Shown in pieces: positions 34,350-54,551 of a DNA stretch of 64,000 nt; the first letter of the stretch is position 1; every line of letters starts with the position of its first letter. Origin of the DNA: a virus (taxonomy: Duplodnaviria > Heunggongvirae > Uroviricota > Caudoviricetes); IMG/VR virus record IMGVR_UViG_3300028833_000054, positions 182,482 through 246,481 of that record. One strand, 5' to 3'. A program made the translations under genes and the position numbers. The notes beneath the pieces are model-generated. The model was not told the origin of the DNA. It saw only the letters and a program-made list of their open reading frames with translations, and ran no database searches.

Positions 34350-35153
34350 TCACTTAATCATATTGAGATATTCATCTTCAGTGAACTTAGAAATTCCTAA
34401 CTCATTGGCTTTCTTAATCTTAGCAGCACCTGCTTTGTCACCAACAATAAGAAATGTCAATCCTCTGGATATTCCAGATGCATATGTACCACCATTTGCA
34501 ATAACAGATTCTTTGATTTCATCTCTAGAGAAGTTCTTTAAAGTACCTGTTGCAAGAATAGTCATTCCGAACAATTTGTTACCAGTTGTCATAGGCTTAT
34601 CAAACTTTGTATTAAAATATTTGTAAACATTCTGAAGTTCTTCCTTTTCAGATGCCATGTAATTATGTACATTATTTCCTGCAACTTCACCAAGAACACC
34701 AACAACATCATCTAATGATGCCTTTTCTATTTCTTCAATAGAACCAAATCTCTCAAGAAGTTTCTTAGCATTTACTTTTCCAATACCTGCAATACCAAGA
34801 GACATCAAAACATTTTCTGCCTTTGCTTTGTTTCTTGAATTCATCAATTCATCAACAATATTTCTTGCAACAACTGGTCCACAACCTGCATGCTGCAATT
34901 GTTCTGCAGTAAGATTATATAAATCCCACCAGTTTCTGATATTAAGTGCAGGAACAATCTTTCGGAGAGTCTTTTCAGACAATCCATCAATATTCATACA
35001 CTCCTTAGTTACAAAATAATTTAATTTTGCAATTCTTCTTTCTTCACAATCAGGATTGCTACAATAAAGATGAGCACCATCTTCAAGGAGTCTTACTATC
35101 GGAGCTCCACAAAACGGACAAACAGTCGGTTCTTCAATTTTAATAGCTTTCAT
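34350..35153 (-). CDS. ligA: NAD-dependent DNA ligase, C-terminal fragment (Zn-finger, HhH and BRCT domains)
   Basis: CPFCGAPIVRLLEDGAHLYCSNPDC (Cys4 Zn finger), HhH region, and BRCT GMTILATGTLKNFSRDEIKESVIANGGTYASGISRGLTFLIVGDKAGAAKIKKANELGISKFTEDEYLNMI. The start codon overlaps the stop of the inserted GT2 gene (TAATG). Confidence 0.8.
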   Translation of the reverse strand: MKAIKIEEPTVCPFCGAPIVRLLEDGAHLYCSNPDCEERRIAKLNYFVTKECMNIDGLSEKTLRKIVPALNIRNWWDLYNLTAEQLQHAGCGPVVARNIVDELMNSRNKAKAENVLMSLGIAGIGKVNAKKLLERFGSIEEIEKASLDDVVGVLGEVAGNNVHNYMASEKEELQNVYKYFNTKFDKPMTTGNKLFGMTILATGTLKNFSRDEIKESVIANGGTYASGISRGLTFLIVGDKAGAAKIKKANELGISKFTEDEYLNMIK

Positions 35154-36406
35154 TAATTAGCAGGAGTATATATGTTACACAATGTTTTTAATTTTTCCTT
35201 TTCAAAAGGTTTACTCATATCAGTGCATTGATATTCTTCATTCCACAAAGGGTCATCAGAACCAAGTTCAAGAATTCTATTATGAATTTGTTCATCATAT
35301 TTTTTTCTCAAAAGAGAATTGGTTCTTTGTATTTCATCAAACCTATGTGATTGAGCAGTAGTTCCATCCCTTCTTGTTGTATTGTTTCCTTCATGTTGAA
35401 TATACAAAACTTTATCAACAATAGAAATTTTTCCATACAGAAATGTGCGAATCAACAAATCCATATCATCAAGAACTGATAACTCTATATTATGACCGCC
35501 AATCTTATGATAAAATTCTTTTTTCCAACATCTAACATGATTAGGAAGAGCATGAATTCCTCTGACAGAAACTGCATTAACAAGTGCAGTCAATGCAATA
35601 TTTCGTTCTTGGCCCATTACAAATACTTTTCTGTATTCGCCAAGACCATAAGCAAAATTCTCAGAATAATAAATTTCATGTCCATTTACTTCTTCCATTG
35701 CATGAGAATAAACAAAATCACTGTCAGGATATGCAGCAAAAGTATTATTCAGTTGTTCAAGACAATCTGGAAGAAGTTCATCATCATGGTCTACTTCAAC
35801 AAGATAATCTCCATCACAAGCAGAAGCAATCATATGCTTGTTGAAACCAATATTTCCATGATTAGTGATATTCTTGACTACTACAATTCTTGGGTCATGG
35901 AAATGTTCAATCATTTCAGAAGTAGCAGGAGAAGTACTATCATCAAGAATATACCAATTCCAATTGTGATAAGTTTGATTTAGCAAAGACTCATACAGTC
36001 TTACAAACATCTTTTTTGGAGTATTGAATGTACAAGTGAAAATTGAAAACAACTTTACTTCTTGTGGACGTTCTCTATTAATATTATTAAGAAATACTCC
36101 AATAATTGCTCTTGCTAAAGTATCAGGTTCAAAAGTATCTTTGTGAATCCATTTCTTTCTGAACTCAAATGACATTTCATTAAGAGGTTTGAAATCAATA
36201 TTTTCACCTACTGTAATAATACAATCAAATCCTTTTGCTTTATTGAGTTCAGACAAAAGATTGTTAGTATTTTTAACTATATGAAAATCAAACCCTTTCT
36301 CACCATAATACCACTTATACTCTGGGTCAGTTGAAGTAGTGACCAAAGAGTAATCATGTTCATCGGCGAGAGGGTCAATGATAAATGCTGAAATTCTATT
36401 CTTCAT
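35153..36406 (-). CDS. GT2-family (GT-A fold) glycosyltransferase inserted between the two halves of ligA
   Basis: FSIFTCTFNTPKKMFVRLYESLLNQTYHNWNWYILDDSTSPAT (classic GT2 N-terminus) and DxD motif VEVDHDDELLPD. Extra ~130-aa N-terminal domain of unknown function. Both ends overlap the ligA fragments by 1 nt. Confidence 0.7.
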   Translation of the reverse strand: MKNRISAFIIDPLADEHDYSLVTTSTDPEYKWYYGEKGFDFHIVKNTNNLLSELNKAKGFDCIITVGENIDFKPLNEMSFEFRKKWIHKDTFEPDTLARAIIGVFLNNINRERPQEVKLFSIFTCTFNTPKKMFVRLYESLLNQTYHNWNWYILDDSTSPATSEMIEHFHDPRIVVVKNITNHGNIGFNKHMIASACDGDYLVEVDHDDELLPDCLEQLNNTFAAYPDSDFVYSHAMEEVNGHEIYYSENFAYGLGEYRKVFVMGQERNIALTALVNAVSVRGIHALPNHVRCWKKEFYHKIGGHNIELSVLDDMDLLIRTFLYGKISIVDKVLYIQHEGNNTTRRDGTTAQSHRFDEIQRTNSLLRKKYDEQIHNRILELGSDDPLWNEEYQCTDMSKPFEKEKLKTLCNIYTPAN

Positions 36407-37680
36407 TATTCTAATTCTATATTTTCAGTAAGGCAGCGTTCATAGTCAACTCCAGTGACTTTCGGAATGACAGCTCCTCCTTTCTCTACAAAGACGTAAG
36501 CACCTATCTGTAGATTCAATTGATTGATATAATCAATGTTGTTCAAAGAGGCTTTAGATACAGTAGAACCGTCAATCTCAACAGGTTCAAGGATTCCTAC
36601 TGGAGTAAGCTTGCCAGTTCTACCCATCTGCCACTCAACACTAAGAAGCTTAGTAGAAGCAGATTCTTGTTTGAACTTGAAAGCCTTGGCCCATTTAGGT
36701 ACCTTCTGTGTATAACCCATCTGAAGTTGTTTCTCAATTGAGTCAAATTTGATCACACAACCGTCCATGCAGTAATCCTGCTTCTTCAAAAATCTATCTT
36801 CAAATTCTTTGATGAATGTAAGAACAGTATGTTGGTCAAGCGCAAGCCAATAATTAGGTGCATTGAAACCAAAAATATTTGCTACGGTAAGAGCCTTTGC
36901 TTGGCTGTCAAGATAAAGTTTATTGAATAAATCGTCATCATCAACAAATACTGCAAACGGCATAAACAAAAGCTTACGACTAGCTGTAACTTTCGGGTCA
37001 AGTTGTTTAATAGAGCCGGCAGCACAATTTCTCTCATTCGCAAACAAAGGAAGACCTTGCTCTTCACGTTCTTTATTGATTCTTTTGAATTCTGCTTTTG
37101 ACATCAGAATCTCACCGCGGATTTCAACATACTTAGGAACATAAATCTCCCAAAAATGATAGTCATTGACTACATCTGGATATATCATTCCATTTTCGTT
37201 TTTGTTTCCGTTAATTTTTAACTTCAAAGGAATAGACCTGATAGTCTTTACATTCTCAAGAATATTGTCACCTTTAAGACCAGAACCTCTAGTAGAAGCA
37301 GAAACAAGAACACCATCAACATAGATAAGAGAACAAGAAACTCCATCATATTTAGGCTCAACTATCCATGTATTGTATCCGTCATCTACAGATTCCATCC
37401 AAGACTTAAGCTCTTCCATATCATAGCAATTTGCAATAGAGCCCATGATACGTTTTCTTTCAACCGTAGTGAAGCCATCTTGCAAATCAGAACCTACACG
37501 TTGAGTCGGAGAATAAGGAAGAATGTAACCAGTCTCAGCCTCGAGTTCTTCCAACTGTTTCATTTTCATATCAAACATATAGTCTGACATGGTAGGTTCA
37601 CACTTTACATAATAATCATAATTTGCCTGGTTGAGTTCTTCAACAAGGTCTTCAATCAAACCATTTTTACTAATATCCAT
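36406..37680 (-). CDS. ligA: NAD-dependent DNA ligase, N-terminal fragment (Ia, adenylation/NTase and OB domains)
   Basis: SPTQRVG, adenylation motif EPKYDGVSCSLIY (KxDG), TRGSG, NERNCAAGS, AFKFK, MGRTGKLTPVGILEPV, collinear with E. coli LigA residues 1-~405. Ends exactly at the OB/Zn-finger boundary. Confidence 0.8.
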   Translation of the reverse strand: MDISKNGLIEDLVEELNQANYDYYVKCEPTMSDYMFDMKMKQLEELEAETGYILPYSPTQRVGSDLQDGFTTVERKRIMGSIANCYDMEELKSWMESVDDGYNTWIVEPKYDGVSCSLIYVDGVLVSASTRGSGLKGDNILENVKTIRSIPLKLKINGNKNENGMIYPDVVNDYHFWEIYVPKYVEIRGEILMSKAEFKRINKEREEQGLPLFANERNCAAGSIKQLDPKVTASRKLLFMPFAVFVDDDDLFNKLYLDSQAKALTVANIFGFNAPNYWLALDQHTVLTFIKEFEDRFLKKQDYCMDGCVIKFDSIEKQLQMGYTQKVPKWAKAFKFKQESASTKLLSVEWQMGRTGKLTPVGILEPVEIDGSTVSKASLNNIDYINQLNLQIGAYVFVEKGGAVIPKVTGVDYERCLTENIELE

Positions 37681-39491: not shown

Positions 39492-40112
39492 TTATCGTCT
39501 TCCTCCACGGTGTTGATTTCCATTAGGTCTGTGATTTTCACTAGGTCTTGAACCAGGTTGTGGCTTTGGTGGAGGTGGTGTAGGACGATACCTTGGAAGA
39601 GGCATTGGTCTTGGACGATAATATAGTCTTGTATGATTATATGGAATAATTGTTCTTTCATAATAAAAATCATAAATTCTTCTATAAAGAACATGATTTC
39701 TAATTACTCCTGTATCTTTATCAACATACTTGTAAATACCTGTAATATCAATTACACCATTTAAATACATTTGATATAACTCAGGAAAATGATTCTTCAA
39801 TACTTCCATCATTTCAGAATGATTTCTGTAATAGTACTTCATAAAATGATACTTGACTTTGTAATCAACTGTACCATCTTCAAGTACAACTTCTTTCATT
39901 GAGTCAACATCCAAAACTCCTTCCATATAATATGTATAAAGTTGAGGATAATGATTTGCAAGAACATAAGAAATCTCGTCCATCTCTTTGACTCTTCTTT
40001 GATTTGCATAAGATGCTGTTGCACAAGATATGAAAATCATTGATGAAATCAATACGAGTAATAAACTAAATTTTTTCATAGTTAACGATCTTTGTAATTT
40101 TTCTCTAGCCAA
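39492..40112 (-). CDS. Secreted/lipoprotein with two ~45-aa internal repeats and a Pro-rich basic C-terminal tail
   Basis: Signal peptide MKKFSLLLVLISSMIFISCATA (the likely start is the internal Met at ~40079). Repeats LKNHFPELYQMY / LANHYPQLYTYYM. C-terminal PRPMPLPRYRPTPPPPKPQPGSRP. Confidence 0.45.
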   Translation of the reverse strand: MAREKLQRSLTMKKFSLLLVLISSMIFISCATASYANQRRVKEMDEISYVLANHYPQLYTYYMEGVLDVDSMKEVVLEDGTVDYKVKYHFMKYYYRNHSEMMEVLKNHFPELYQMYLNGVIDITGIYKYVDKDTGVIRNHVLYRRIYDFYYERTIIPYNHTRLYYRPRPMPLPRYRPTPPPPKPQPGSRPSENHRPNGNQHRGGRR

Positions 40113-41185
40113 GTTTGATATGTTCCAGAAATAACATTGTTCAACCAGTCTTCATTGTCTAAATACCATTTGACAGTTTTTTCAATTCCGGTGTCAAATG
40201 TTTCTTCTGGCTTCCAACCAAGTTCATTCTGCAATTTACTTGAGTCAATAGCATATCTCAAATCATGGCCTTTTCTATCTGTTACAAATTGTATGCTAGA
40301 CTCATAAGTTCTAACCCACAACGGCTCAGGATTTGTAATATATTTTTTATTGCTTCTAAGTTGTTTTTCATGTGCAAATACTTTAATAATCTTCTTGATT
40401 ATATCAATATTGCTCATTTCGTGGTTTCCTCCAACATTGTAAGTTTCACCAGACTTTCCATTGTGAAAAATAACATCAATTGCTGCTGCATGGTCTTCAA
40501 CATATAACCAATCTCTTACATTTTCACCTGTTCCATAAACTGGTATTTCTTCATGATTCTTCAACTTGTTTATTACAAGCGGAATAAGTTTTTCTGGAAA
40601 TTGATTTGGTCCGTAATTGTTACTGCAATTGCTAATTGTAACATTCAATCCATAAGTATCATGATAAGCTTTTACAATATGGTCTGAACTTGCTTTACTT
40701 GCAGAATACGGAGAATGAGGATTATATGGAGTAGTTTCAGTAAACTTATTCTCTGGATTCATATCAAGTGCACCATAAACTTCATCAGTTGAAACATGAT
40801 GAAATCTATGAATTGCAAGATTATCTTTCCACTTGTTAAGTGCAACTTCTAACAATCTGTATGTTCCAACAATATTAGTATTGATAAACTCACCCGGGTC
40901 AAGAATACTTCTGTCAACGTGACTTTCTGCAGCAAGATTGATTATATCCGTAACATTGTATAAATCAAATGCGTTTTCAACATCTGCTTTATTTGCAATA
41001 TCACCACAGAAAAACTTGTAATTCTTACTTTCTTCAATATCTTTCAAGTTTTCAAGGTTTCCCGCATAAGTAAGTTTGTCAAAATTAATAATCAAATAAT
41101 TAGGATAGTTTTTAACGAATCTCCTAACAACGTGACTACCGATGAAGCCTGCTCCACCGGTAATCATTATAACTTTCTCAAACAT
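40082..41185 (-). CDS. rmlB: dTDP-glucose 4,6-dehydratase
   Basis: ITGGAGFIGSHVVRRFVKNYPNYLIINFDKLTYAGNLENL N-terminus. SDR YxxxK (YSASKASSDH). Full-length colinearity with RfbB. Confidence 0.85.
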   Translation of the reverse strand: MFEKVIMITGGAGFIGSHVVRRFVKNYPNYLIINFDKLTYAGNLENLKDIEESKNYKFFCGDIANKADVENAFDLYNVTDIINLAAESHVDRSILDPGEFINTNIVGTYRLLEVALNKWKDNLAIHRFHHVSTDEVYGALDMNPENKFTETTPYNPHSPYSASKASSDHIVKAYHDTYGLNVTISNCSNNYGPNQFPEKLIPLVINKLKNHEEIPVYGTGENVRDWLYVEDHAAAIDVIFHNGKSGETYNVGGNHEMSNIDIIKKIIKVFAHEKQLRSNKKYITNPEPLWVRTYESSIQFVTDRKGHDLRYAIDSSKLQNELGWKPEETFDTGIEKTVKWYLDNEDWLNNVISGTYQTWLEKNYKDR

Positions 41186-42107
41186 AAAATCTAAATACTT
41201 TTTCTACTACTCTATCAACAGAAGTTGCCCACTGTGGAATAAAAGCATTATAAATGTTAATAACTTTGTCTTTTGATAACAAACCAAACTTAGGTCTCTC
41301 GACATTGGTAGGATAGTCTGATGTCTTACAAGGTTTGATTACTCCTCCAAAGAACATTGACCTCTTAGCAGCTTCTCTCTTATATGCAGCGAGAACCTCA
41401 CAAGCAAAATCATACCAAGTTGTATAACCTAAATTTGAAAAATGATAAATTCCTGATGTAAATGGTACAGTATTAGATGAATCACCAACAATGACATCAG
41501 TAACAATGAATTTTGCCAAATCACCAGCATAAGTAGGAGTTCCGAACTGGTCATCAACAACATTCATATCCTTGTTGTCCTTCATATTCTGAAGAGTAGT
41601 CAATACGAAATTCTTTCCGTATTCAGAATACAACCAAGATGTTCTGATAATCATATACTCAAGGTCTCCGCGTTTTGCAATATTCTGAATCTCTGTCTCA
41701 CCAAGAAGTTTTGTTCTTCCATAAGTGTTGAGAGGACCAGTAGGAGAATCTTCAGTCTTCAAATCAGGACTTCCGTCAAATACATAATCAGTTGAAATAT
41801 GGATAAGACGAATTTTTGACTTCTCGCAAGCTTCAGCAAGAAGCTTAGGACCATATCCATTTGCAAGGATAGCTGCATCTTCATTGTCAGTACAACCACC
41901 AACATTTGTATATGCAGCACAATTGATTACATAATCATAATCGCCGTCTTCGACATATTTCTTTACATGAGTAGAATCCGAAATATTCATTTCAGGCAAA
42001 TCTACTGCATCATATTCAAAAGAATCTCCGTAATTCTTTATAGCATCAATAATACACTTGCCAAGTTGACCATTGGCACCAGTGATAAGAATTTTAGTTT
42101 TCTGCAT
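41178..42107 (-). CDS. rmlD: dTDP-4-dehydrorhamnose reductase
   Basis: KILITGANGQLGKCI Rossmann start and YGRTKLLGE (YxxxK). About 300 aa. Confidence 0.8.
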   Translation of the reverse strand: MQKTKILITGANGQLGKCIIDAIKNYGDSFEYDAVDLPEMNISDSTHVKKYVEDGDYDYVINCAAYTNVGGCTDNEDAAILANGYGPKLLAEACEKSKIRLIHISTDYVFDGSPDLKTEDSPTGPLNTYGRTKLLGETEIQNIAKRGDLEYMIIRTSWLYSEYGKNFVLTTLQNMKDNKDMNVVDDQFGTPTYAGDLAKFIVTDVIVGDSSNTVPFTSGIYHFSNLGYTTWYDFACEVLAAYKREAAKRSMFFGGVIKPCKTSDYPTNVERPKFGLLSKDKVINIYNAFIPQWATSVDRVVEKVFRFYV

Positions 42108-42675
42108 AATAATCTATATTATAATCAAATAAATTGTTTTCATCTATATCTCCCCAAGTAGGGTGGCAGCAATCCTTCTTAGATAAAATAATAGCTCCAT
42201 CATATACCTTTCCCCAATCAATTCCCACAGAATTCCAGTCAAGTGCTGCTTCAGATTCTTTATCATAAGGATTATCACACTTGTATTGGAAGATTGTATC
42301 ATCTTTCAATGCAATAAATCCGTGGGCAAATCCACGAGGAATGAAAAATTGTTTATGATTGTCTTCAGTAAGAAATACACCGACAAATTTTCCAAAGGTA
42401 GGAGAACCTTTTCTAATATCTACTGCAACATCATAGACTGCACCTTTTACTACTCTAACGAGTTTTGACTGTGCAAATGGTGGTTTCTGCCAGTGAAGAC
42501 CTCTGATAACTCCAGCTCTTGATTTACTTTCATTATCTTGAACGAAAGTTGTGTTGCAAACTAATTCTCTAAACTGTTTGTCATTAAACGATTCAAAAAA
42601 ATGACCTCTGTCATCTTTAAAAATATCTGGGTCAATCACATAGACACCAGGAATTTCTTGTTCTGTTACTTTCAT
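42094..42675 (-). CDS. rmlC: dTDP-4-dehydrorhamnose 3,5-epimerase
   Basis: Cupin signature FVQDNESKSRAGVIRGLHWQ...KLVRVVKGAVYDVAVDIRKGSPTFGKF...PRGFAHGF. Confidence 0.8.
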   Translation of the reverse strand: MKVTEQEIPGVYVIDPDIFKDDRGHFFESFNDKQFRELVCNTTFVQDNESKSRAGVIRGLHWQKPPFAQSKLVRVVKGAVYDVAVDIRKGSPTFGKFVGVFLTEDNHKQFFIPRGFAHGFIALKDDTIFQYKCDNPYDKESEAALDWNSVGIDWGKVYDGAIILSKKDCCHPTWGDIDENNLFDYNIDYYAEN

Positions 42676-45247: not shown

Positions 45248-45832
45248 TTAAATTATTCCCATTTTTTGAAGAGTAACCTCTGTAAATACTCTAAATTCAA
45301 TTCCTCTTTCTTCACACCAAGCAACTGCTGCTTTCCACTTTGCATTATTCTGCAAATAAGTTCTTGCAGCTTCATTAAATCTTTTCTGCTCTTGTAATTT
45401 TGCACCAACAGGAGGAGGAACAGGTCTCTCTGTTTGATGTTTCGGTTTTATTTCAATGAACATCTTTTTTGTCTTTGTTCCATCTTCATCATCATCTGCT
45501 CTAATCTCAAGATAAAAATCTGGATAATAATTGTTTATTGGCCAATTTGCTGGGTCAAGAGGAGAAGAATTATATTTTCTGCAAGCATCTAAGTCAACAG
45601 CTGCAGGATTCTTATATTGAATTGAAGCAGTCTCACAGCCCCACTCAATAACAGCAGGATTGTCATCACACCAACGAGCAAATGCCATTTCCCAAGCTGA
45701 ACGGTAAATAACTTCACCTCCAACTACTTTACTTGGATTTTTTGGAACATAGACACCTTGATGCGGTTTTCCCGATTTCTCCTCATTCATTATGTTTGGT
45801 CTATGAGATTTTTTATATGCTAAGGTACTCAT
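45248..45832 (-). CDS. Head completion protein (T4 gp4-like, nuclease fold)
   Basis: GVYVPKNPSKVVGGEVIYRSAWEMAF...VIEWGCETASIQYKNP and C-terminal AKWKAAVAWCEERGIEFRVFTE parallel gp4 (KWVPKNPQKY..., AKWEAAERYANKLGVKF). PD-(D/E)xK-like YPDFYLEI...FIEIKP. Confidence 0.55.
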   Translation of the reverse strand: MSTLAYKKSHRPNIMNEEKSGKPHQGVYVPKNPSKVVGGEVIYRSAWEMAFARWCDDNPAVIEWGCETASIQYKNPAAVDLDACRKYNSSPLDPANWPINNYYPDFYLEIRADDDEDGTKTKKMFIEIKPKHQTERPVPPPVGAKLQEQKRFNEAARTYLQNNAKWKAAVAWCEERGIEFRVFTEVTLQKMGII

Positions 45833-46716
45833 TGTTGTAATTCTTCTTTTTTAATTAAATTTTCAAAGTATCTTACTGTATTTTCAAATACTCTGATTTT
45901 TGCAGCGTCTTCTGGTTTATTCTCTATTTTCAACAATCTAACTTTTGCTTTTGCTAAATCCAATTCAAAATAGTAATTAACTTTAAACCAGCTTCCAGTA
46001 TGTGAAATAGAATCTTTATGTATTCTATATATCAATAATTTATCTTTAAGCTTGTATGCAGTTCCTCCAAAAGAAAAGAATTCTGTCCAAAACATATAAT
46101 CTCCATAACTCGAATATTTGAATTTCAATTTATATTTAAGCAAAATATCTCTTCTTATACAAGAGCATTGATTACACCAAGATAATGGATGAAATACATG
46201 TTCTAAAGCAGGAGATTCATTAAATTTATCTGTTGCTTCATCATTAGGAAATACATCAAACCATCTTCTCTTCAAATCTGGCCATACTTCTTTTGACTCC
46301 TCTGGATTCTCCAATTGTCCAGTTAAGCTATTAGACCATTTCGGAATAACTGTACTACAACACGCATCATATTCATGATGATTATCCATAAATTCTACAT
46401 ACTTTTCAATCAATGTTTTATCAGGTATATCATCACCATCTAAACGAATAATATATTCTGTATCACAAAGTTGATATGATAAATTGTGTGCATCAATATA
46501 TGGCTTTGTCTTGTCTGTGCAATTTATATATAACTTAAATCTTTCATCTTGTTTACAAAACATTTCATAAATAATCTGAATGCTGTTGTCAGTTGACCAG
46601 TCATCAACAATATAGCACACAAAATCTTTGTAAGTTTGTGACTGAATAGCTTTGAGTGTAGGAATTATAAAATTTTCTACATTATGTACGGCCATTGCGA
46701 TTCCAACTTTCATCAT
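45829..46716 (-). CDS. GT2-family glycosyltransferase (paralog A)
   Basis: VGIAMAVHNVENFIIPTLKAIQSQTYKDFVCYIVDDWSTDNS, ERFKLYIN, YIDAHNLSY, DGDD. Confidence 0.75.
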   Translation of the reverse strand: MMKVGIAMAVHNVENFIIPTLKAIQSQTYKDFVCYIVDDWSTDNSIQIIYEMFCKQDERFKLYINCTDKTKPYIDAHNLSYQLCDTEYIIRLDGDDIPDKTLIEKYVEFMDNHHEYDACCSTVIPKWSNSLTGQLENPEESKEVWPDLKRRWFDVFPNDEATDKFNESPALEHVFHPLSWCNQCSCIRRDILLKYKLKFKYSSYGDYMFWTEFFSFGGTAYKLKDKLLIYRIHKDSISHTGSWFKVNYYFELDLAKAKVRLLKIENKPEDAAKIRVFENTVRYFENLIKKEELQQ

Positions 46717-47876
46717 CTCAAATCCATTATAAAATATGTTTCACCTACACCGTTGTTATATTTTAAGTATGCTCTCCAAACCTCATCTTGATTTCTTGCA
46801 TAAACAACATGATTTCCAGTCTGTATTGCATATTCCAAAAATATAGCAAACATTGTATCATCTATATGCTCTTCAGTAAATACAAAAGTATGTCCTTTAA
46901 CACAATTCATAACAGATATAACCTGTGTCATCAGAGCATATACTTGTTTAGTAGAATTGTTAAATTGAATAACATTATATGAATTAAGTATATCTTTCCA
47001 TTTTTCTCCTATCTTATGCATATCTTGTGAATTGATAAAGAATGCATTGATATACTTTTCTATAGAAAAATTAGATTCATTTTCACATAGAAAATAATTT
47101 GATGTGTTCAAAGTAGGAGTTCCATCAGGCCAACCTCTGCTTGCTTTCTTAATCCATTCATCAAATGATTTTGTATAATAATGTTTCACATAACCGCATC
47201 TATATTTAGGAGGAAAATGAGTATGTGATTGATAATCAACTACATGTAATCCTCCAATATTGTATTTAACTGGATTTGAACACATTGGAATATGTGAACC
47301 GTTAAACCAACAATTTTGAAATCTATCATATCCTCCTCTCAATATTGATTTGACAAATACATTTTCTTTGAACATCAATATTGGTTTAACAGGCTCTGGA
47401 AATCTTTCTTGTACTGAACCCTCTTCTTTATGATATTTTCCATTACTTCCATATACAATCCAATTAAAAGATATTGCATCTTCTTGAATCGTATCCAAAA
47501 ATTCCTTTATGTTACTATATACTCCTAATTCAAGAAATTCGTCAGCGTCAAAATATCCACACCATTTGTAATTTCCTTCATGCGCAAACATAGAATATAT
47601 CTGAACTTGAAAAGAGTCAAATCCTCTACAATCAAATATTTCTACTGTTTTATTTTCAATATAGTCTTTCAACAAAGTTTCTACAGAAGCATCATCATTA
47701 TTATCACATATAATAACTTTGTCAAATCCTAAATTAAGATAATGATCTACATATTCTATTAAATAATCATTTTCTCCTTTTGCACATGTAAATACAAGAT
47801 ACTTTTCTGCATCATCTGGGTCTTTATGATAGTATCTATCTATTTTATCTGTATGAAAATGATACACTTCGTTCAT
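46713..47876 (-). CDS. Putative GT-A-fold glycosyltransferase (DUF23/GT92-like)
   Basis: YLVFTCAKGENDYLIEYVDHYLNLGFDKVIICDNNDD and FDADEFLE (DxD). Confidence 0.45.
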   Translation of the reverse strand: MNEVYHFHTDKIDRYYHKDPDDAEKYLVFTCAKGENDYLIEYVDHYLNLGFDKVIICDNNDDASVETLLKDYIENKTVEIFDCRGFDSFQVQIYSMFAHEGNYKWCGYFDADEFLELGVYSNIKEFLDTIQEDAISFNWIVYGSNGKYHKEEGSVQERFPEPVKPILMFKENVFVKSILRGGYDRFQNCWFNGSHIPMCSNPVKYNIGGLHVVDYQSHTHFPPKYRCGYVKHYYTKSFDEWIKKASRGWPDGTPTLNTSNYFLCENESNFSIEKYINAFFINSQDMHKIGEKWKDILNSYNVIQFNNSTKQVYALMTQVISVMNCVKGHTFVFTEEHIDDTMFAIFLEYAIQTGNHVVYARNQDEVWRAYLKYNNGVGETYFIMDLR

Positions 47877-48325
47877 TACTTTTTAATTTGATTTATCAAT
47901 TCCTCAATTCTTATTCTATTATTTATAGCATAAATAATTGAGTCAATTGTTTTTATAGTTTCCAACATATACTTTGCATGTTGGTCTAGAAGTTCAATTT
48001 GATATTTTTCATCTTTTAAATCAGCATCAATTTGTGCATTGATTGCAGCCTCAGAAGAATATCTAATTTGTGCTTGTGTTTTATAATAGTTGTATTTTTG
48101 TGAATACTTAAATTTATATTCTCTGCTCAAGTATGAAATTTTAGACAACAACCCAAAATAATAATCAAGAGAATCTTGTCTTCTTGAATATATGACATTT
48201 TGCAGGTCTGGTAGATCTGCAAAATTTTTCATTTTTCCATTGAGTTCAGTAATCAAACTTGACCATTTCTGCTGATGCTCAAGAATATAATCTTCTAAAG
48301 TTTGTGGTTTCTGCTCTTCCATCAA
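47876..48325 (-). CDS. Hypothetical protein (coiled-coil-like)
   Basis: 149-aa ORF. Confidence 0.4.
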   Translation of the reverse strand: MMEEQKPQTLEDYILEHQQKWSSLITELNGKMKNFADLPDLQNVIYSRRQDSLDYYFGLLSKISYLSREYKFKYSQKYNYYKTQAQIRYSSEAAINAQIDADLKDEKYQIELLDQHAKYMLETIKTIDSIIYAINNRIRIEELINQIKK

Positions 48326-49146
48326 TCACAAAGATTTTTATATTTTATCTTTTCTTCTTTATACTTTTTTACTTGTTCATAATCTTTTTGCAAAGCAAAT
48401 CTTGTTTCTTTAAATTCTGACAATTTTGCCATAATATTATAGGGCACAAAGTAAAAATCAGAAGTAGAAGATGCATTTGTTTTATAATCACAATGAATAG
48501 ATTTTTCTACATTTGATTTATATAATCTTCCTCCACAGGCAAGTACATTCCACCAAAAAATATAATCACCTAATCCGTATGATATATACTTTGGATGATA
48601 TTTATCATAAAATGATTTTCTTATAGATGAAGAAGGATTTGACCAAATAACAGTATTTCCGCAATATGAATAGGCATTGTTTTTGTTGAACCAATCTAAT
48701 TCTTCTTTGCTGTGTGCATCTGCAAAGTCTTTGTCTTCTTCATATGTCAATTCAATTATTTCTCCATTTACAGCTTTGCATCTTTTCATTTTTGTTGAAA
48801 ATGCATCTATATTTGGATGTGTATTTAAGAATTCGACATGAAACTTTAAGTAATCTTCATATAAAATATCATCTGCATCTATTCTGAACAAATATTCTCC
48901 ATTTGCATATTCATAAGATAAATTGTGTGAATCAATATACTTGTCTGCTGTTATATTTACAAACAACTTAAATCTATTATCTTTCAAACAATACTCTTCA
49001 AGAATAATTTTTGCAGTATTATCTGTAGAATGATCATCTACTATAATAACTTCAAAATCAGTATATGTCTGTTTGATAATAGAATCTAATGTTTTTCGTA
49101 TACTTAATTCATTGTTATATGTTCCTATGCAAATACTAACTAACAT
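48322..49146 (-). CDS. GT2-family glycosyltransferase (paralog B)
   Basis: VSICIGTYNNELSIRKTLDSIIKQTYTDFEVIIVDDHSTDNT, NRFKLFVN, YIDSHNLSYEYA, DADD. Confidence 0.75.
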   Translation of the reverse strand: MLVSICIGTYNNELSIRKTLDSIIKQTYTDFEVIIVDDHSTDNTAKIILEEYCLKDNRFKLFVNITADKYIDSHNLSYEYANGEYLFRIDADDILYEDYLKFHVEFLNTHPNIDAFSTKMKRCKAVNGEIIELTYEEDKDFADAHSKEELDWFNKNNAYSYCGNTVIWSNPSSSIRKSFYDKYHPKYISYGLGDYIFWWNVLACGGRLYKSNVEKSIHCDYKTNASSTSDFYFVPYNIMAKLSEFKETRFALQKDYEQVKKYKEEKIKYKNLCD

Positions 49147-50387
49147 TATTCTGCAGTATCACTTTCAAGGAATTCATCAATGTCAGATGCAGCATCTTGT
49201 GAAGGAAGTTCAAATGAAGGACGAATTATAGTTTCATCAAGATTATGAAGTACTTCATCAGTCAATACTTTACTTGTCCACAATTCTGTAATAGGAAGTT
49301 CTTCTCCAAGGTGTTTAACGATAATCTTCCTACTCTTCTGTGTTGCACCAATCTTAGGAAAAGCATATTTTGTTTCACCGTTGAACTCGAATATCTTAAC
49401 AATTTCTTTGTCCTTATCACTAAGCTTATCATATTCTTTTTGAGTCAATAAAATTCCTTCCATAATTCCAGAATTCTCCCATGTCAAATATGCTTCAAGA
49501 CCAACATAAGGATTAGGTGCTTTGAAAAAAGGAATATTAAACTTAACCTTCTGCGGAATAGTAAATCTTGATTTCTCAGGTTTTGCAGTAACAATAACAC
49601 CAGTCTTTGTAAAATCACCAATTTTCTTCTCTGCAATCTTATCAGATTCTTTATCATCAAGCTTTGCGGTTGAAAGCATCAAAGTGACTGAAGAATTGTA
49701 TTGAATACCAGAGCCGCCAGAAACTACACTCTTAGAGAACAAATCCTGTGTCTGATAAATGTGGGAGCAAACAATCATTGGTGCTTGAGCCCTTGCAAGA
49801 GCAGTAGCATTTGTTCTGAACAAAGCTTTAATCTCTTGCTGTTTTGTCATATCTCTCTTTTGATTAGCTTCAAGAGTATCTGTCAATTCTTTTGTAGAGG
49901 TGAGGTTTCCAAGTGAGTCAAGGACAAATATCAATTTCGGCCTAGAGTCCTCAGGTTGGTCATTTACCTTCTTCAGGAGGTTTGCCATAAAAGTACTTAC
50001 CTCTGAAATAGTAGTAACTTGTTTAATAACAAACTTTGTCGCGTCACAACCAAGTCTCTCAATAAAGTCTTTGTCAATTGCTCCTTCAGAATCCATATAA
50101 ACTGGTGTATATCCTTTCTTCTGTGCTTCACGACAAGCAGAAACTGCAAGATAAGATTTACCTGCACCTGGAGCACCTGCAAGAGTTGTAACTCTGCCAG
50201 ACGGAATTCCTTTGAACAAAGAACCTGTCATACAAGCATTAAGAATATAACTTCCTGAATTGATATATTCTTTGATAACAGCTGTCTTACTTTCAGAAAG
50301 AATTTCTGCAGAATTATCAACAGAACTAATTAAATCAAACACTGACATTTCTTTATCAGTAGTTGTTATAGATGATTTCTTTGCCAT
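49146..50387 (-). CDS. uvsX: UvsX-like (RecA/Rad51 superfamily) recombinase
   Basis: Walker A LAGAPGAGKS. FVLDSLGNLTSTKE and DMTKQQEIKALFR compare with T4 UvsX VFIDSLGNLASKKE and DMTRAKTMKSLFR. Confidence 0.8.
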   Translation of the reverse strand: MAKKSSITTTDKEMSVFDLISSVDNSAEILSESKTAVIKEYINSGSYILNACMTGSLFKGIPSGRVTTLAGAPGAGKSYLAVSACREAQKKGYTPVYMDSEGAIDKDFIERLGCDATKFVIKQVTTISEVSTFMANLLKKVNDQPEDSRPKLIFVLDSLGNLTSTKELTDTLEANQKRDMTKQQEIKALFRTNATALARAQAPMIVCSHIYQTQDLFSKSVVSGGSGIQYNSSVTLMLSTAKLDDKESDKIAEKKIGDFTKTGVIVTAKPEKSRFTIPQKVKFNIPFFKAPNPYVGLEAYLTWENSGIMEGILLTQKEYDKLSDKDKEIVKIFEFNGETKYAFPKIGATQKSRKIIVKHLGEELPITELWTSKVLTDEVLHNLDETIIRPSFELPSQDAASDIDEFLESDTAE

Positions 50388-50442: not shown

Positions 50443-51273
50443 TTATGAAATAACTTCTTCATAAAGGTATTCATTTTCCTTTATTTTTCTTTTTACCACT
50501 TCATCTGCATCAATTTTAACAAAACACAACCCAGGAGGAGATGGTAAAAAATCAACTATACCACTTTCTGCTACAAAAATATTTGGAACAAATTGTATTG
50601 ATGTATCAATTCCTGCATAATATTCATACAAAGCTTTATTCAAATAAGATTCTTCATTTACTTTTGGTATATAGTGATGGTCTTTAAGGTCTTTACCTAT
50701 CAAATATTCTATTTTTGTACACAACTTATTAAATTCTTTTGGTGCAGCGGCACAGAAACAAGCACCTATCCATAAAAATTCAGAATAAGGAATGTATGAA
50801 GCCTTTGTATTATCTGTTTCTTGTAAAGTTTGAATACATTTTATATCATAATATGGATTTTGACCGGGTATATAAATTTCATCATGAATCGCTTTAGTAT
50901 ACATAATATGATATGATATAAGAACCTTTCCTGTATAAAAATGATTACTTATATTTGTCCAAAAGTCGGCAGGTCTTTCAATAAAAGAACTGTCAGCATC
51001 AACAAATATAGTAGCATCTGCATCATAGTCTAAAACTCCTTTAATATATGAAAACTTCATATAATTTACTATTGGATACGGAAGTTGATATATTTTATGT
51101 ACATTGAACTTCAAAAATGAATCATTTCTAAATTTCTCGAAATACTCCAAATTATCAGTAAGTATATCTATTATCTTCTGTGACCCAGGAAATAAATTAT
51201 CTAACGATGCAAAAAGCTTATCTGCAAAGATGCAATAAACACTTGTTGCTATATAAACTAATTGTATAGTCAT
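50443..51273 (-). CDS. Hypothetical protein; possible nucleotide-sugar transferase (GT-A-like)
   Basis: IFVDADSSFIE DxD-like motif after a hydrophobic strand. Weak. Confidence 0.3.
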   Translation of the reverse strand: MTIQLVYIATSVYCIFADKLFASLDNLFPGSQKIIDILTDNLEYFEKFRNDSFLKFNVHKIYQLPYPIVNYMKFSYIKGVLDYDADATIFVDADSSFIERPADFWTNISNHFYTGKVLISYHIMYTKAIHDEIYIPGQNPYYDIKCIQTLQETDNTKASYIPYSEFLWIGACFCAAAPKEFNKLCTKIEYLIGKDLKDHHYIPKVNEESYLNKALYEYYAGIDTSIQFVPNIFVAESGIVDFLPSPPGLCFVKIDADEVVKRKIKENEYLYEEVIS

Positions 51274-51275
51274 AA

Positions 51276-52142
51276 TTACTTAAATTCTATTAAGTTTTCT
51301 TTTATGTAGTCAACAAAATTAAAAAAGTTTTTAAGGTCTTCAGGAAGATACAAATAGGAAATTATATGTCTGTAATTAGCATAGAAATCGTTTTCAGGGT
51401 CTTCATAATCTCTAAAGTCATCGAAGAAGAATTCAGACATTCCTTTTGCTCTTTGTTGAACAATAGATGAAGTTTTCAACGGAAGATAATTTCCTGGAAA
51501 ATCCTCTGCATAAAATCTATTATGCATTACAGGAAGAGGTCTCCGCAAAGATTCTTCATACAAGGCAGGAACATTAATCCAATAAAATGAACCAGGGTAT
51601 TGCCAACGATATTTTGAACAAGTTAATCGTTCAGAATAATATGCAAAATGACCACAAAGTATTTGTCTATTGACACGTATCAATCTATTTTTTAATTCTT
51701 CAATATCATGCAAATTGAAATAATACATAGATAATACCCAATCTATTGTAGAGTCATTTAAAGAATTTGTTGCTCCTTTACTATGTGCAAAAAATACAAT
51801 TGATTTTTCTGCTGACATCTTATCAAATACTCTTGTTTTAAGAGTTTCTCCTTCTCTGTAGTCAATATTATTTTGTACTACATTAAATGTAACATTTTTA
51901 TAAATTCCTATATTGAAAAATCTTTCCTCCCAAGTTCTTATAAGTTTTTCATCATTTGTATCAGAAACAGAAAATGTTATATCATATTCATCAAATACAT
52001 TTGCAAACTCCTTTAAGCACGTAAAATGATATTTGTATATCTCAGGAATTTCACCATCTGGGATATACAAATGATAAACTAATTTGAATTTTGGAGTTTC
52101 CATATTATTTCCAATAAGAATAAAGTCCTTTATTAATTTCAT
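51276..52142 (-). CDS. Hypothetical protein
   Basis: 288-aa ORF within the glycosyltransferase cluster. Confidence 0.35.
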   Translation of the reverse strand: MKLIKDFILIGNNMETPKFKLVYHLYIPDGEIPEIYKYHFTCLKEFANVFDEYDITFSVSDTNDEKLIRTWEERFFNIGIYKNVTFNVVQNNIDYREGETLKTRVFDKMSAEKSIVFFAHSKGATNSLNDSTIDWVLSMYYFNLHDIEELKNRLIRVNRQILCGHFAYYSERLTCSKYRWQYPGSFYWINVPALYEESLRRPLPVMHNRFYAEDFPGNYLPLKTSSIVQQRAKGMSEFFFDDFRDYEDPENDFYANYRHIISYLYLPEDLKNFFNFVDYIKENLIEFK

Positions 52143-53124
52143 ATTCAGGCCACTTAAACCTGTCTCTCATCTTAAGAGTCTTTGCCCAATTCCACATCTT
52201 TCTCAATCCTATTTCAAGACCATGATTGTCTGCATAATCAAGCAAGTCAATTGATTTTTGATATGAAGGAACTGCATGCTTAACTTCATATCTTGCCTCC
52301 TTGTAAACAACTTCAGCATCCCAACCAAATACTTCGAGCATCATTTCTTTAGCTTCATTGATTGTGCAAGCCTTTGTACCGCCAACATTTATAATCTGTT
52401 TACTTGCTTCTTTATATGTTGCTGCAGCCCACAAACAAGGTGTTGTATCATCAATATAGCTGAATGCTCTTGTCTGTTCACCAGAACCATACACTGTAAG
52501 TGGTTCACCATTAAGATGTTGATACATCCAAATACCTAATACATTTCTATATCTGTCAAAAATATTCTGACCGATTCCATAAACATTGTGAGGTCTGATT
52601 ATACACCAATCAAGACCGTGTTGTAATCCTGCAGATTGTATATCAAGTTCACAAGCATATTTTGATATTGCATAAGGGTCAAGAGGATGAGGAGTAAGTG
52701 TTTCATCAAATAATTCACCTTTTATTCCATCACCGTAAACACTCATTGATGATGTGTAAACAAGACGCTTAACATCATATTCAATACAACAATTGATTAT
52801 ATTAGCAGTTGAAATAGAGTTGTTACTCCAATTGAATCTTCTAATAAATGGTGACAATCCTTCTGCGGCATAAGCAGCAAGATGAAAAACATAAGTAGGA
52901 CGGTACTTGTCAAAAATTTCCATCAACTTGACATCTTCAACATCAGATTTTATAAAAACAAAATTCTTATAATTCTCTGTCAGTCCATCAAGATTCTCTT
53001 GCAACCCACCAAACAAGTTGTCAATTCCAACGACAGTATATTCAGGAAATCTTCTTAAAATATAATCTGCTAAATTAGAACCTAATAAACCAGCTACTCC
53101 TGTGATAATTATTGATTTTCCCAT
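52105..53124 (-). CDS. NAD-dependent sugar epimerase/dehydratase (extended SDR)
   Basis: Rossmann ITGVAGLLGSNLADYIL, catalytic SMSVYG and YAISKYACE (YxxxK). Confidence 0.7.
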   Translation of the reverse strand: MGKSIIITGVAGLLGSNLADYILRRFPEYTVVGIDNLFGGLQENLDGLTENYKNFVFIKSDVEDVKLMEIFDKYRPTYVFHLAAYAAEGLSPFIRRFNWSNNSISTANIINCCIEYDVKRLVYTSSMSVYGDGIKGELFDETLTPHPLDPYAISKYACELDIQSAGLQHGLDWCIIRPHNVYGIGQNIFDRYRNVLGIWMYQHLNGEPLTVYGSGEQTRAFSYIDDTTPCLWAAATYKEASKQIINVGGTKACTINEAKEMMLEVFGWDAEVVYKEARYEVKHAVPSYQKSIDLLDYADNHGLEIGLRKMWNWAKTLKMRDRFKWPEYEINKGLYSYWK

Positions 53125-53591
53125 TCTCGTAAATGAATTATTCTTTGGTTTGAACTTCCTCTAAAAGGAAGACTCAAATCCCGTTGAGCATATCTATATG
53201 GACCATCAACAAGTATATCACATTTTTTAAGTATTGCTTTCTTCAACGGGTGTTTAATAAGATTTTCATATACATCTCCACTATAAACCCAAATATCTTT
53301 ATCAGGAAATTTTGTTTTTATTTCACAAATAAGAAAGTACAACTCAATTAAACTCTTTAAATTCTGGTCTAAAGGGTCTCCTCCTGACAGTGTAATTCCT
53401 TTGATATAAGATTTATCAAGTTTGGTAAAAAGGTCCTTCTTAATTTCTCTAAGAGCCTTCCCTTGTTTGTAATTCCATGTTTCTGGATTATGACAACCTT
53501 TACAATGATGAGAACAACCTGCTACCCAGAGCGTTACCCTAAATCCTTCTCCATTATTTACATCTGGCGATGTTATATTCAAATATCTCAT
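53109..53591 (-). CDS. nrdG: Anaerobic ribonucleotide reductase activating protein (radical SAM)
   Basis: VAGCSHHCKGCHNPETW (Cx3Cx2C) plus glycine-rich SAM motif GITLSGGDPL. 160 aa. Confidence 0.7.
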   Translation of the reverse strand: MRYLNITSPDVNNGEGFRVTLWVAGCSHHCKGCHNPETWNYKQGKALREIKKDLFTKLDKSYIKGITLSGGDPLDQNLKSLIELYFLICEIKTKFPDKDIWVYSGDVYENLIKHPLKKAILKKCDILVDGPYRYAQRDLSLPFRGSSNQRIIHLREWENQ

Positions 53592-53594
53592 ATA

Positions 53595-54551
53595 TTATAT
53601 AATATTCTCTATCTTATATTTTTCTATAACTTTATCATAATTGCCTTCTTCGACAAGACAGTCTTTAAAATACATTGCAGTATTAAACATCACTTCTTTA
53701 ACATTTGCAACGGTAACATCATTCTTTACTATATGTTTGTCATCATATAGAGTTAAAGCAATATAAGTAAAATATGCAATATAGTAGTATTGTAAATTGC
53801 TATATTTTTGATAACATGCTGGTTCTTCTACTTCCTTTTCATAATCCCATGTTGAAGAAGCATTTGGACCTGTATATATAATTTTATACTCATCTACTAT
53901 ATGAAGTTTTCCACCTAATGCCATTACTTGTAACCAAAATATAGTATCACCTGCCATATAATGAATACATTTTGGATGATGTTTGTCATAAAATGATTTT
54001 CTTAAACAAGACCCAGGATTGTGATACAAATATACATCATCACAATATCCTGCCAAATGAGATATTGCTGGAGGACAATTATTAAAATATGAAACCCACT
54101 CATCATAATTTTTAATAATATGTGGTTCATATCTGCTTTTATCAATATTATTGATATCTATTATCCTCGTATTTTCATAAAATATCAATTTTCCGCTACA
54201 TCCATCTATATCAGGATGTGCATCCATATAATTAACAAAGCACTCTAAAAAGTCTGGAAGCAATACATCGTCATGGTCAAGTCTAAAAAGCAATTCGCCG
54301 GAAGCATATTCATATGATTTGTTGAAAGAATCAATATATGGCCATTTACAATTTGTAGTATTTACAAATAATTTAAACCTCTTGTCTCTTACACAATATT
54401 CATTTGAAACAATATTTACCGTATTGTCTGTAGAATAATCATCTACTATAATTACCTCATAATCATTGAAAGTTTGAGACAATACAGAATCTAATGTCCG
54501 GCGAATTGTTTTTTCAGAGTTATATGTTGTTACACATATACTTACTTTCAT
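53595..54551 (-). CDS. GT2-family glycosyltransferase (paralog C) between nrdD and nrdG
   Basis: VSICVTTYNSEKTIRRTLDSVLSQTFNDYEVIIVDDYSTDNT, KRFKLFVN, YIDSFNKSYEYA, DHDDVLLPDFLE. Confidence 0.75.
   Translation of the reverse strand: MKVSICVTTYNSEKTIRRTLDSVLSQTFNDYEVIIVDDYSTDNTVNIVSNEYCVRDKRFKLFVNTTNCKWPYIDSFNKSYEYASGELLFRLDHDDVLLPDFLECFVNYMDAHPDIDGCSGKLIFYENTRIIDINNIDKSRYEPHIIKNYDEWVSYFNNCPPAISHLAGYCDDVYLYHNPGSCLRKSFYDKHHPKCIHYMAGDTIFWLQVMALGGKLHIVDEYKIIYTGPNASSTWDYEKEVEEPACYQKYSNLQYYYIAYFTYIALTLYDDKHIVKNDVTVANVKEVMFNTAMYFKDCLVEEGNYDKVIEKYKIENII

Follow-up and report, generated by a model that had tools for sequence, protein, structure and literature searches.

Glycosyltransferase genes dispersed among core genes, one of them between the halves of a split DNA ligase, in a Lak-related huge phage

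The stretch of DNA analyzed here (64,000 nucleotides, positions 182,482 to 246,481 of the IMG/VR record IMGVR_UViG_3300028833_000054; hereafter the window) comes from a Caudoviricetes phage and bears four genes for family 2 glycosyltransferases (GT2), each placed against or within a conserved core gene: between the two parts of a split gene for NAD+-dependent DNA ligase, ligA (GT_lig), next to the head closure gene gp4 (GT_gp4), directly after the recombinase gene uvsX (GT_uvsX), and between nrdD and nrdG of the anaerobic ribonucleotide reductase (GT_nrd). A sequence-only reading of the window had taken these places for the niches normally used by homing endonuclease genes (HEGs). We consider it likely that the glycosyltransferases (GTs) are functional, vertically inherited cargo, part of a set of glycosylation genes interleaved with core genes in a Lak-related clade. 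They share the HEG niche without any HEG hallmark that could be tested here, and they would not home. The dispersed layout of the GTs and the fixation of one of them inside a split LigA are new features; no description of a split LigA was found in the literature searched.

The four genes and their coordinates were as the sequence-only reading had given them, all on the minus strand and all scoring far above the PF00535 (Glycos_transf_2) gathering cutoff (66.9–101.3 bits vs. 23.3), and their core neighbors were likewise confirmed from Pfam and PHROG matches. The extended similarity and shared motifs claimed for all four held for three: GT_gp4, GT_uvsX and GT_nrd are 32–48% identical in pairwise alignments of 236–258 aa and share a family-specific C-terminal half, while unrelated GT2s from metagenomes and bacteria match this family over the first 100–130 residues only. 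Because about 240 aa align, vs. 100–130 residues for generic GT2s, the similarity exceeds that among random GT2s, and the three are true paralogs. GT_lig fell outside this family: it matches the three over the generic GT2 core only (27–29% over 80–236 aa), its motifs differ (NWNWYILDDSTS, DHDDEL), and it has an extra 120-aa N-terminal domain. Its own orthologous family has at least 120 cluster representatives at 53–88% identity, nearly all of 408–427 aa, that is, near full length, and is a separate, older GT2 family.

That GT_lig truly is separate, and that GT2 is a very large family common in phages, would suit the idea that four unrelated GT2s were acquired from hosts one by one, with only chance behind their likeness and placement. 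We find this hardly credible, and for the three paralogs it is refuted by their similarity over about 240 aa, including the C-terminal half that generic GT2s do not match, and by their shared phage context: full-length matches in a search of 5.8 billion proteins carried no bacterial taxon name, and those whose contigs were examined lay in the same phage gene context. A metagenome scan with the GT family alignment, meant for counting positions, was unusable, nearly all its matches being to generic GT2 N-terminal parts.

Five aspartates (D155, D156, D206, D208 and D209 in GT_lig numbering) are invariant in all four GTs and among 26 GT_lig orthologs. GT_lig, the one GT that was modelled with AF2 (pLDDT 87.6, pTM 0.88), was recognized by Foldseek as a GT-A fold, with probability 1.00 to K4CP (chondroitin polymerase), SpsA, RmlT (a Listeria TDP-rhamnose transferase), TarP and TarS; heparosan synthase is another near solved fold. 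By sequence the GTs are soluble, with no hydrophobic segment (maximum KD19 at most 1.4). We predict that, as soluble GT-A enzymes, they assemble a glycan from nucleotide sugars.

In the part of the window between about 24 kb and 64 kb, genes are tightly packed and all on the minus strand, which bears the portal gene, gp4 and a gp2-like gene along with the GTs and replication genes. Co-transcription of the GTs with early genes, which the sequence-only reading had offered as its alternative, was not supported. The gap is at most 5 nt at 20 of 32 gene junctions in the region, and 14 of the 32 overlap. The wedging of GTs by overlapping stop and start codons, on which the earlier proposal had leaned, is present at both sides of GT_lig and GT_uvsX (−1 nt each) and of GT_gp4 (−4 nt each) and absent at GT_nrd (+3 nt each); such packing is the genome-wide norm and nothing special to GTs.

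A 364-kb contig is on record with a protein identical to GT_nrd, so the phage is a huge phage. Among deposited phages, the closest to it are the Prevotella Lak megaphages (UvsX 52–55% identical). Megablast of the 34–55 kb portion against deposited phages gave no match, UvsX alone matched within 20 kb on either side in Lak-C1, so that Lak genomes offer no synteny, and Lak phages were not among the listed matches or organism tallies for GT_nrd, GT_lig or the window LigA. Relative contigs with homologs were recovered through exact-protein look-up and IMG/VR scans: L001, near-identical to the window (96–99%), A (L004), B (L006), C (L008), D, F, G, H, L014, L015 and L016, together with the distant huge phages L019 and L024. 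Trees were built by neighbor-joining with bootstrap.

The window contains its own positive control for HEG behavior. An insertion of 1108 bp interrupts nrdD, leaving the flanking coding sequence intact, and contains a GIY-YIG/NUMOD3 endonuclease ORF (open reading frame; 56650–57210) and a 102-aa ORF (56382–56690). This insertion is absent from L001, 97–99% identical here, and from B, in both of which NrdD is continuous; it is a genuine mobile element. All four GTs are present at 97–98% identity in L001, even though L001 is without the nrdD element. Because the HEG insertion differs between 97–99% identical genomes while the GTs do not, the GTs are not HEG-like: the presence/absence variation between near-identical genomes typical of HEGs is not seen for any of the four. 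They do resemble HEGs in standing as promoter-less ORFs between or within conserved genes, but so do genes throughout this genome. Pfam and PHROG searches revealed no nuclease domain or HEG remnant in the four GTs or in the neighboring orf149, although identical searches do detect the GIY-YIG/NUMOD3 ORF. No transposase family was matched among the window ORFs scanned. The HEG-like mobility that had been proposed for the GTs was thus not borne out. The nrdD insertion resembles a T4 I-TevII-style intron; group I intron models of Rfam gave no match around it even at E up to 1, and an Rfam scan of the window matched no family.

A search of the flanks for short direct repeats, which had been suggested as a check together with one for HEG remnants, likewise came back almost empty. 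The scan of the GT loci, for repeats of the direct kind only, returned coding-sequence paralogy and no flanking repeats besides one 10-mer, TAATATATGA, at GT_nrd. It occurs three times on the coding strand of the window, twice at the GT_nrd|nrdG and nrdD|GT_nrd junctions (53597, 54557), and in A at the upstream GT_nrd junction only. Its presence at both junctions could be a microhomology trace of insertion or a shared stop-spacer-start context.

In T4, mobC lies at nrdG/nrdD, segA at uvsX/beta-gt, I-TevII in an nrdD intron and mobA at 60/39, and in T4-like phages split nrdA, 39/60 and gene 43 have been linked to HEG insertions (PMC2988022). The proposed match of the GT positions to HEG landing sites therefore stands for two of them, at the same gene pairs as mobC and segA in T4, and HEG-linked gene splitting is known as well. 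Like seg/mob genes, the GTs sit between conserved core genes or within one, often lacking a promoter and with the start codon overlapping the upstream stop, and an essential enzyme may remain as two polypeptides (as where mobE splits nrdA in Aeh1). They differ in having no nuclease domain, their product being a metabolic enzyme, in showing none of the variation of the window's GIY-YIG element, and in being conserved across the clade under purifying selection.

One could still suppose that the GTs are present or recent HEG cargo, brought in by HEGs that cut nrdD/nrdG, uvsX, gp4 and ligA and were then lost. The matching mobC and segA sites and the association of HEG insertions with split genes fit this idea, as do a live GIY-YIG HEG 2 kb from GT_nrd and the promoter-less, ORF-precise form of the cassettes, like that of many seg/mob genes. 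Yet no nuclease domain or remnant was found in or beside any GT by Pfam and PHROGs, GT_nrd is present in L001 where the nrdD HEG is missing, the GTs are fixed under purifying selection with same-site orthologs down to 58–73% core-neighbor identity, and the GT_lig family is as conserved as LigN; we judge HEG cargo very improbable. The positions of the GTs would coincide with HEG sites because both kinds of gene persist only at permissive sites. Position alone does not identify a selfish element; cargo genes reach HEG junctions in dense phage genomes.

The case for functional, vertically inherited cargo begins with selection. Between the window and L001, the ratio of nonsynonymous to synonymous rates (dN/dS) is 0.05–0.17 for the four GTs, so they are under purifying selection. 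These values were taken from orthologs; among the paralogs, at 32–48% amino acid identity, synonymous sites are saturated, and orthologs of the window and B already give dS >1.

At ligA the GT is a fixed resident. LigN and LigC together make up the full LigA domain set and are colinear with the intact LigA of relatives, with no residues lost. The cut lies in the linker between the OB fold and the Zn finger, at the same alignment column in the window, L016 and D, and all database matches to ligN at about 63% identity or more are of 411–433 aa, that is, an N-terminal piece only. The junction stops are TAA with a change of frame, and the same architecture recurs in independent assemblies from different samples; TAG, rare yet used as a stop, was thus ruled out as a recoded codon producing apparent splits. 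A GT2 gene of 413–434 aa directly after ligN was found in 8 of 8 clade members sampled (the window, L001, B, C, F, L014, L015 and L016), an arrangement that holds down to 58% LigN identity, and ligC follows the GT in all six members whose locus extends far enough (the window, L001, C, L014, L015 and L016). GT_lig and ligN are co-inherited, because GT_lig identity closely tracks LigN identity (GT_lig/LigN percentages of 98/96, 86/82, 74/73, 62/60, 61/61 and 61/58). Values of dN/dS for ligN (0.06–0.11) and ligC (0.19 vs. L001, 0.15 vs. C) show that both halves are maintained by purifying selection, from which we infer that the ligase works as two polypeptides.

In D, ligN and ligC are adjacent with no GT; a TAA stop, a change of frame and 100 bp lie between them. 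D-type split ligases group with intact 666-aa ligases in 100/100 bootstraps, and all split forms share one side of a bipartition with three intact sequences in 53 of 60 replicates, so fission occurred either once with later re-fusion or twice. The view that the ligA split predates the GT, which D's adjacent halves had favored, was withdrawn, since D-type forms group with intact ligases. The ligase gap acts as a hotspot of insertion, because C has eight extra small ORFs between ligN and GT_lig (L008 11263–14920; 79–214 aa, one with a weak MGS match) and in L015 a DUF5662 gene separates GT_lig from ligC. Distant huge phages have GT_lig homologs (41–55% identity) with no ligase within 5 kb, and at the two annotated distant loci (L019 and L024) these stand among DUF4422, GT2 and GT92 genes.

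Split replication genes are known from T4-like phages, namely 43A/43B of the Aeromonas phages 25 and 44RR, nrdA of Aeh1, and topoisomerase 39/60; in the case of gene 43, the split may have been there before the inserted gene came in (PMC2988022). The window ligA resembles these in that a replication enzyme is divided at a tolerated point with both pieces kept, and it shares with gene 43 the ambiguity between insertion and prior split. It differs in the enzyme, an NAD+-dependent LigA divided at the OB/Zn-finger linker, and in the resident insert, a GT fixed across a large clade. This clade of uncultivated gut and rumen megaphages, with LigA split at that linker and a GT fixed between the halves, is a natural test of LigA working as two chains.

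Between uvsX and gp4, GT content changes from relative to relative. Here the window has GT_uvsX, a GT92-like gene and GT_gp4, A has a further GT (GT_mid), and B has five GTs; H reads uvsX-orf149-GT92-GT-gp4, so is without GT_uvsX; in C, L014 and L015 the GT92-like gene directly adjoins gp4, leaving the GT_gp4 junction empty; and D reads uvsX-orf149-gp4 without GTs. The GT92-like gene occurs in every GT-bearing relative sampled across the interval (54–99% identity). Altogether, GT occupancy varies at five junctions (uvsX|orf149, orf149|GT92, GT92|gp4, nrdD|nrdG and ligN|ligC), and the insertions and deletions between relatives are ORF-precise. The duplications behind the three paralogs are old, because the window's own three are never sisters (0/200) and the orthogroups are well supported (199/200 for GT_uvsX, 200/200 for GT_mid, and 200/200 for GT_gp4, which is 98% identical to its ortholog in A and 73% identical to that in B, GT299).

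The nrdD|nrdG junction has a different history. It holds a GT in the window, L001 and A only, while in B and H nrdD is followed directly by nrdG. The insertion begins exactly at the start codon of GT_nrd and stops 3 nt short of the nrdG ATG. In the tree, GT_nrd clusters with the GT lying between GT92 and gp4 in B and G (193/200), and its grouping with the corresponding GT of H is weaker (151/200), which indicates that this GT type relocated from GT92|gp4 to nrdD|nrdG, or was duplicated and then lost. Relative F was dropped as evidence for relocation: its 699-aa ORF is a GT2-GT92 fusion placed with 5% bootstrap.

The sequence-only reading had proposed repeated duplication and insertion of a GT cassette, and had named an ancient, stable arrangement as the first half of what would tell against it. 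Synteny shows just such an arrangement at three of the four positions (ligA, the uvsX side and the gp4 side), while the GT at nrdD|nrdG has probably relocated. The duplication-and-insertion idea itself survives in part, in the differing occupancy of five junctions, the ORF-precise indels and the probable relocation of GT_nrd; the four GTs are not one family, however.

Alleles, too, have been exchanged. Between the window and A, seven genes of the region (uvsX, nrdG, nrdD, the epimerase gene, gp4, GT92 and GT_gp4) are all 97–100% identical, while GT_uvsX is 59% and GT_nrd 66% identical inside those flanks, nucleotide identity switching at the gene boundaries of the swapped GTs. Their dS is 0.70–1.26 vs. 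0.05–0.43 in the flanks, with dN/dS at 0.25–0.34 (for GT_uvsX, 1.26 and 0.25). Because dS is far above that of the flanks while dN/dS stays low, the divergence reflects import of diverged alleles through recombination, not positive selection in place. A also carries GT_mid as a 904-bp ORF-precise cassette at orf149|GT92, where the window has a bare TAATG. A further replacement hotspot beside the GTs is orf288, whose 3′ half (51276–52142, minus, vs. L004 2474–3299) has 62–80% nucleotide identity inside 94–99% flanks and is called in A as two ORFs of 162 and 98 aa. Whole-ORF cassette replacement inside 97–100% identical flanks points to selection for glycan diversity.

The account that we favor would run as follows. 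The glycosylation set would comprise the four GT2s, rmlBCD, an NDP-sugar (nucleoside diphosphate sugar) epimerase/dehydratase, the GT92-like gene, orf276 and a two-domain 627-aa protein. At the outset a GT_lig-type gene would have stood in an ordinary multi-GT cluster, as in the distant huge phages. Promoter-less whole-ORF units, from start to stop codon, would have been inserted at the few tolerated places of a densely packed, translationally coupled genome, namely stop/start junctions and one inter-domain linker, that between the OB fold and Zn finger of LigA; because there is almost no intergenic DNA, a new promoter-less ORF would survive only at such places. The ligA insertion would be ancient and fixed, with the ligase now two working polypeptides, and the other three GTs would be old duplications in the orf149-gp4 interval, one type of which later moved from GT92|gp4 to nrdD|nrdG in the window lineage. 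Occupancy would continue to change through whole-ORF gain and loss, and alleles would be swapped with diverged relatives through homologous recombination, for which the conserved core genes on either side would serve as homology arms.

Several points weigh against this account. For both the split ligase and the GTs, activity is a prediction. A GT insertion that caused the fission of ligA and a GT that entered an already split gene could both fit the data. The direction of the GT_nrd move comes from three lineages and neighbor-joining bootstraps, and duplication with differential loss would give an equal pattern. The sole trace of the first insertion mechanism at the new junction is the 10-nt TAATATATGA, which both times stands in a stop-spacer-start context. 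Lastly, the relatives are metagenomic contigs, mostly partial, from 10 to 12 lineages sampled.

Two known kinds of phage variation come close to what we propose. Jumbo phages have polymorphic clusters of paralogous GTs with NDP-sugar enzymes (Iyer et al. 2021, PMC7824862, section 3.4.10). The window set resembles these in combining paralogous GTs with sugar-nucleotide enzymes (epimerases/dehydratases, cupin isomerases) and in its sporadic presence and polymorphism between related phages; it differs in that its genes are dispersed singly among uvsX, gp4, nrdD/G, the portal gene and the ligase gene, one of them between halves of a split ligase, while the distant relatives of GT_lig keep the contiguous cluster form. 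The second parallel is with T4-type phages, for which hyperplastic regions and modular shuffling are described by Arbiol et al. (2010, PMC2839356) and Comeau et al. (2014, PMC4122927). There, as here, ORFs are inserted, deleted and replaced between close relatives at fixed places between core blocks. The shuffled units of those phages are promoter/stem-loop (PeSL) cassettes in intergenic DNA, whereas the junctions of the window GTs have gaps of at most 3 nt or overlaps of 1–4 nt, and no shared intergenic motif was found at them.

Table 1. Positions in the window of the GT genes, their core neighbors and other genes discussed
Feature	Position	Strand	Basis and remarks
dCMP hydroxymethylase (T4 gp42 type)	9736..10437	minus	PDB 1b49, E 2.4e-71, 243 bits
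Thymidylate-kinase-like nucleotide kinase	10434-11057	minus	PHROG 761; upstream of and overlapping the hydroxymethylase gene
ligC	34350..35153	minus	Zn finger, HhH, BRCT; Pfam DNA_ligase_ZBD, HHH_2, BRCT
GT_lig	35153..36406	minus	417-aa GT2/GT-A between ligase halves; PF00535 E 1.6e-19; 1-nt TAATG overlaps on both sides
ligN	36406..37680	minus	Ia, adenylation, OB fold; Pfam DNA_ligase_aden E 3e-63, DNA_ligase_OB
rmlB, rmlD, rmlC (dTDP-rhamnose pathway)	40082..42675	minus	named from translated sequences; next to portal gene
gp4-like head closure	45248..45832	minus	PHROG 218 E 2e-39; 66-100% identical in all relatives; downstream of GT_gp4
GT_gp4	45829..46716	minus	295-aa GT2 paralog; PF00535 E 2.8e-18; ATGA overlaps with GT92 and gp4
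GT92-like / Glyco_tranf_2_4	46713..47876	minus	Pfam PF13704 E 7e-13, PF01697
orf149	47876..48322	minus	between GT_uvsX and GT92; 39-100% identical in relatives
GT_uvsX	48322..49146	minus	274-aa GT2 paralog directly after uvsX; PF00535 E 2.2e-24
uvsX recombinase	49146..50387	minus	Pfam RecA
orf276 (weak GT6-like), orf288, SDR-family NDP-sugar epimerase/dehydratase	50443..53124	minus	between uvsX and nrdG
nrdG anaerobic ribonucleotide reductase activase	53109..53591	minus	Pfam Fer4_12 E 1e-43
GT_nrd	53595..54551	minus	318-aa GT2 paralog between nrdD stop and nrdG start; PF00535 E 7e-29
nrdD C-terminal part	54555..56273	minus	Pfam NRDD profile positions 55-562; 91-100% identical to relatives
nrdD insertion	56298..57405	minus	1108 bp; PHROG 314 homing endonuclease E 1e-23, Pfam NUMOD3
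nrdD N-terminal part (ATP-cone region)	57387..57902	minus	99% identical to L001, there continuous with the C-terminal part

Other glycan genes accompany the GTs (Table 1). The rmlBCD orthologs in relatives match Pfam Epimerase/GDP_Man_Dehyd, RmlD_sub_bind and dTDP_sugar_isom, and the three genes are conserved in B, C, F, L015 and L016. The SDR epimerase/dehydratase matches Pfam Epimerase with E 3.7e-43, and orf276 reaches 33.6 bits with NCBIfam Gltr_6, far below the cutoff; orf149 matched neither Pfam nor PHROG. A 627-aa protein (57949–59832, minus) is built from a pair of similar halves, both bearing a DDD motif (DDDHLYP and IDDDILY). It has no Pfam, PHROG or NCBIfam match and is 51% identical to its ortholog in B; in F and L014, fragments of it stand apart as a small ORF that follows gp4. 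Possibly it is a double GT-like enzyme.

The acceptor of the glycan could be a virion protein, the envelope of the host (probably a Prevotella-like bacterium), or DNA containing hydroxymethylcytosine (hmC). The last is raised by the dCMP hydroxymethylase, which scores 243 bits to T4 deoxycytidylate hydroxymethylase 1b49 vs. about 35 bits to thymidylate synthases (ThyA) and is 55–56% identical to the annotated gp42 of T4-like Aeromonas phages. It suggests hmC-containing DNA in this Lak-related megaphage. We looked for co-occurrence of hydroxymethylase and GT_lig on IMG/VR contigs; the matches lay on different contigs and were uninformative. A dUTPase-like gene lies at 5243–5785.

Placement of the GTs might then be functional: they would glycosylate the phage's own hmC DNA, possibly with rhamnose, linkage to uvsX, nrdD/G and the ligase would give co-expression with replication, and allele swapping would be an arms race with modification-dependent restriction. 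This is a claim about function, compatible with the evolutionary account above, and we hold it as a tentative minority view. The hydroxymethylase is a bona fide one beside a nucleotide kinase, the pairing found in DNA-hypermodification clusters (PMC13326640); the T4 DNA beta-glucosyltransferase gene neighbors uvsX, with segA between them (PMC2988022), much as a window GT adjoins uvsX; the GTs are soluble, and no Wzx/Wzy-type or lipid-carrier Pfam family was matched among the window ORFs scanned; and divergent GT alleles sit in near-identical backbones. The DNA glycosyltransferases described in the literature searched, however, are all GT-B (T4 alpha- and beta-GT, RB69 ORF003c, and the DLP3 and RL38J1 enzymes; PMC6024577, PMC13326640), whereas the window GTs are GT-A/GT2, which sets them apart from both T-even glucosylation and the arabinosyl and hexosyl cytosine systems. 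No GT-B family was matched among the ORFs scanned in this window, which covers 64 kb of a genome that measures at least 364 kb; this is a further difference from the T-even system. The nearest solved relatives of the GTs make polysaccharides or decorate teichoic acid, no rhamnosylated DNA was found in the literature searched, and at least seven GT-like genes are many for base modification. All GTs are acidic (pI 5.0–5.7), a point that would count against DNA as substrate; LigN and UvsX are acidic as well, and we discarded isoelectric point as uninformative on DNA binding.

Taken on its own, DNA as the acceptor seems to us a little less probable still, with virion protein and host-envelope glycans sharing the remainder. 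Most speculative is a fuller version, which we think unlikely: that GT-A/GT2 enzymes fed by dTDP-rhamnose and other nucleotide sugars made by the phage form a new class of phage DNA glycosyltransferases putting variable oligosaccharides on hmC in gut megaphage DNA, with the split-ligase GT translated jointly with the ligase and belonging to the replication machinery, and cassette swapping between near-identical phages reflecting an arms race with modification-dependent restriction. The hydroxymethylase, the many GT-A enzymes and the rhamnose pathway together pose a testable question, whether DNA, virions or hosts are glycosylated in Lak-related megaphages.

Other observations concern the rest of the window and single relatives. 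The family B DNA polymerase ORF (3744–5228, minus) comprises the exonuclease domain and the beginning of the polymerase domain only, matching a 502-position PHROG profile from end to end and positions 116–488 of an 856-position one; the ORF that follows (2720–3778, minus, 352 aa) has no match in Pfam, PHROGs, NCBIfam or PDB, and this polymerase gene may also be split. In B, a frame shift divides UvsX (L006 4601–5783) into ORFs of 198 and 177 aa, and in A orf149 has an in-frame TAA (L004 6531) where the window has Glu; either assembly error or true pseudogenisation may lie behind the two cases, and TAG recoding was ruled out, the A orf149 stop being TAA.

A block on the opposite strand (16143–24103, plus), with GC skew reversed, includes a papain-like protease ORF (16513–17196) and a 2059-aa ORF (17547–23726). 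Around the SPFH/Band_7 gene (31097–32881) GC reaches 0.45–0.51 (31000–33000), much above the mean of about 0.32 for the window. At its end the portal protein has a long low-complexity tail rich in Gly, Met, Asp and Pro (42766–42950, minus), GGMDLGGGMDMGG... In L016 an IS605 OrfB/TnpB (Cas12f-like) gene (2611–3786, minus) lies between the portal gene and rmlC, so true transposable elements do enter the region in some lineages.

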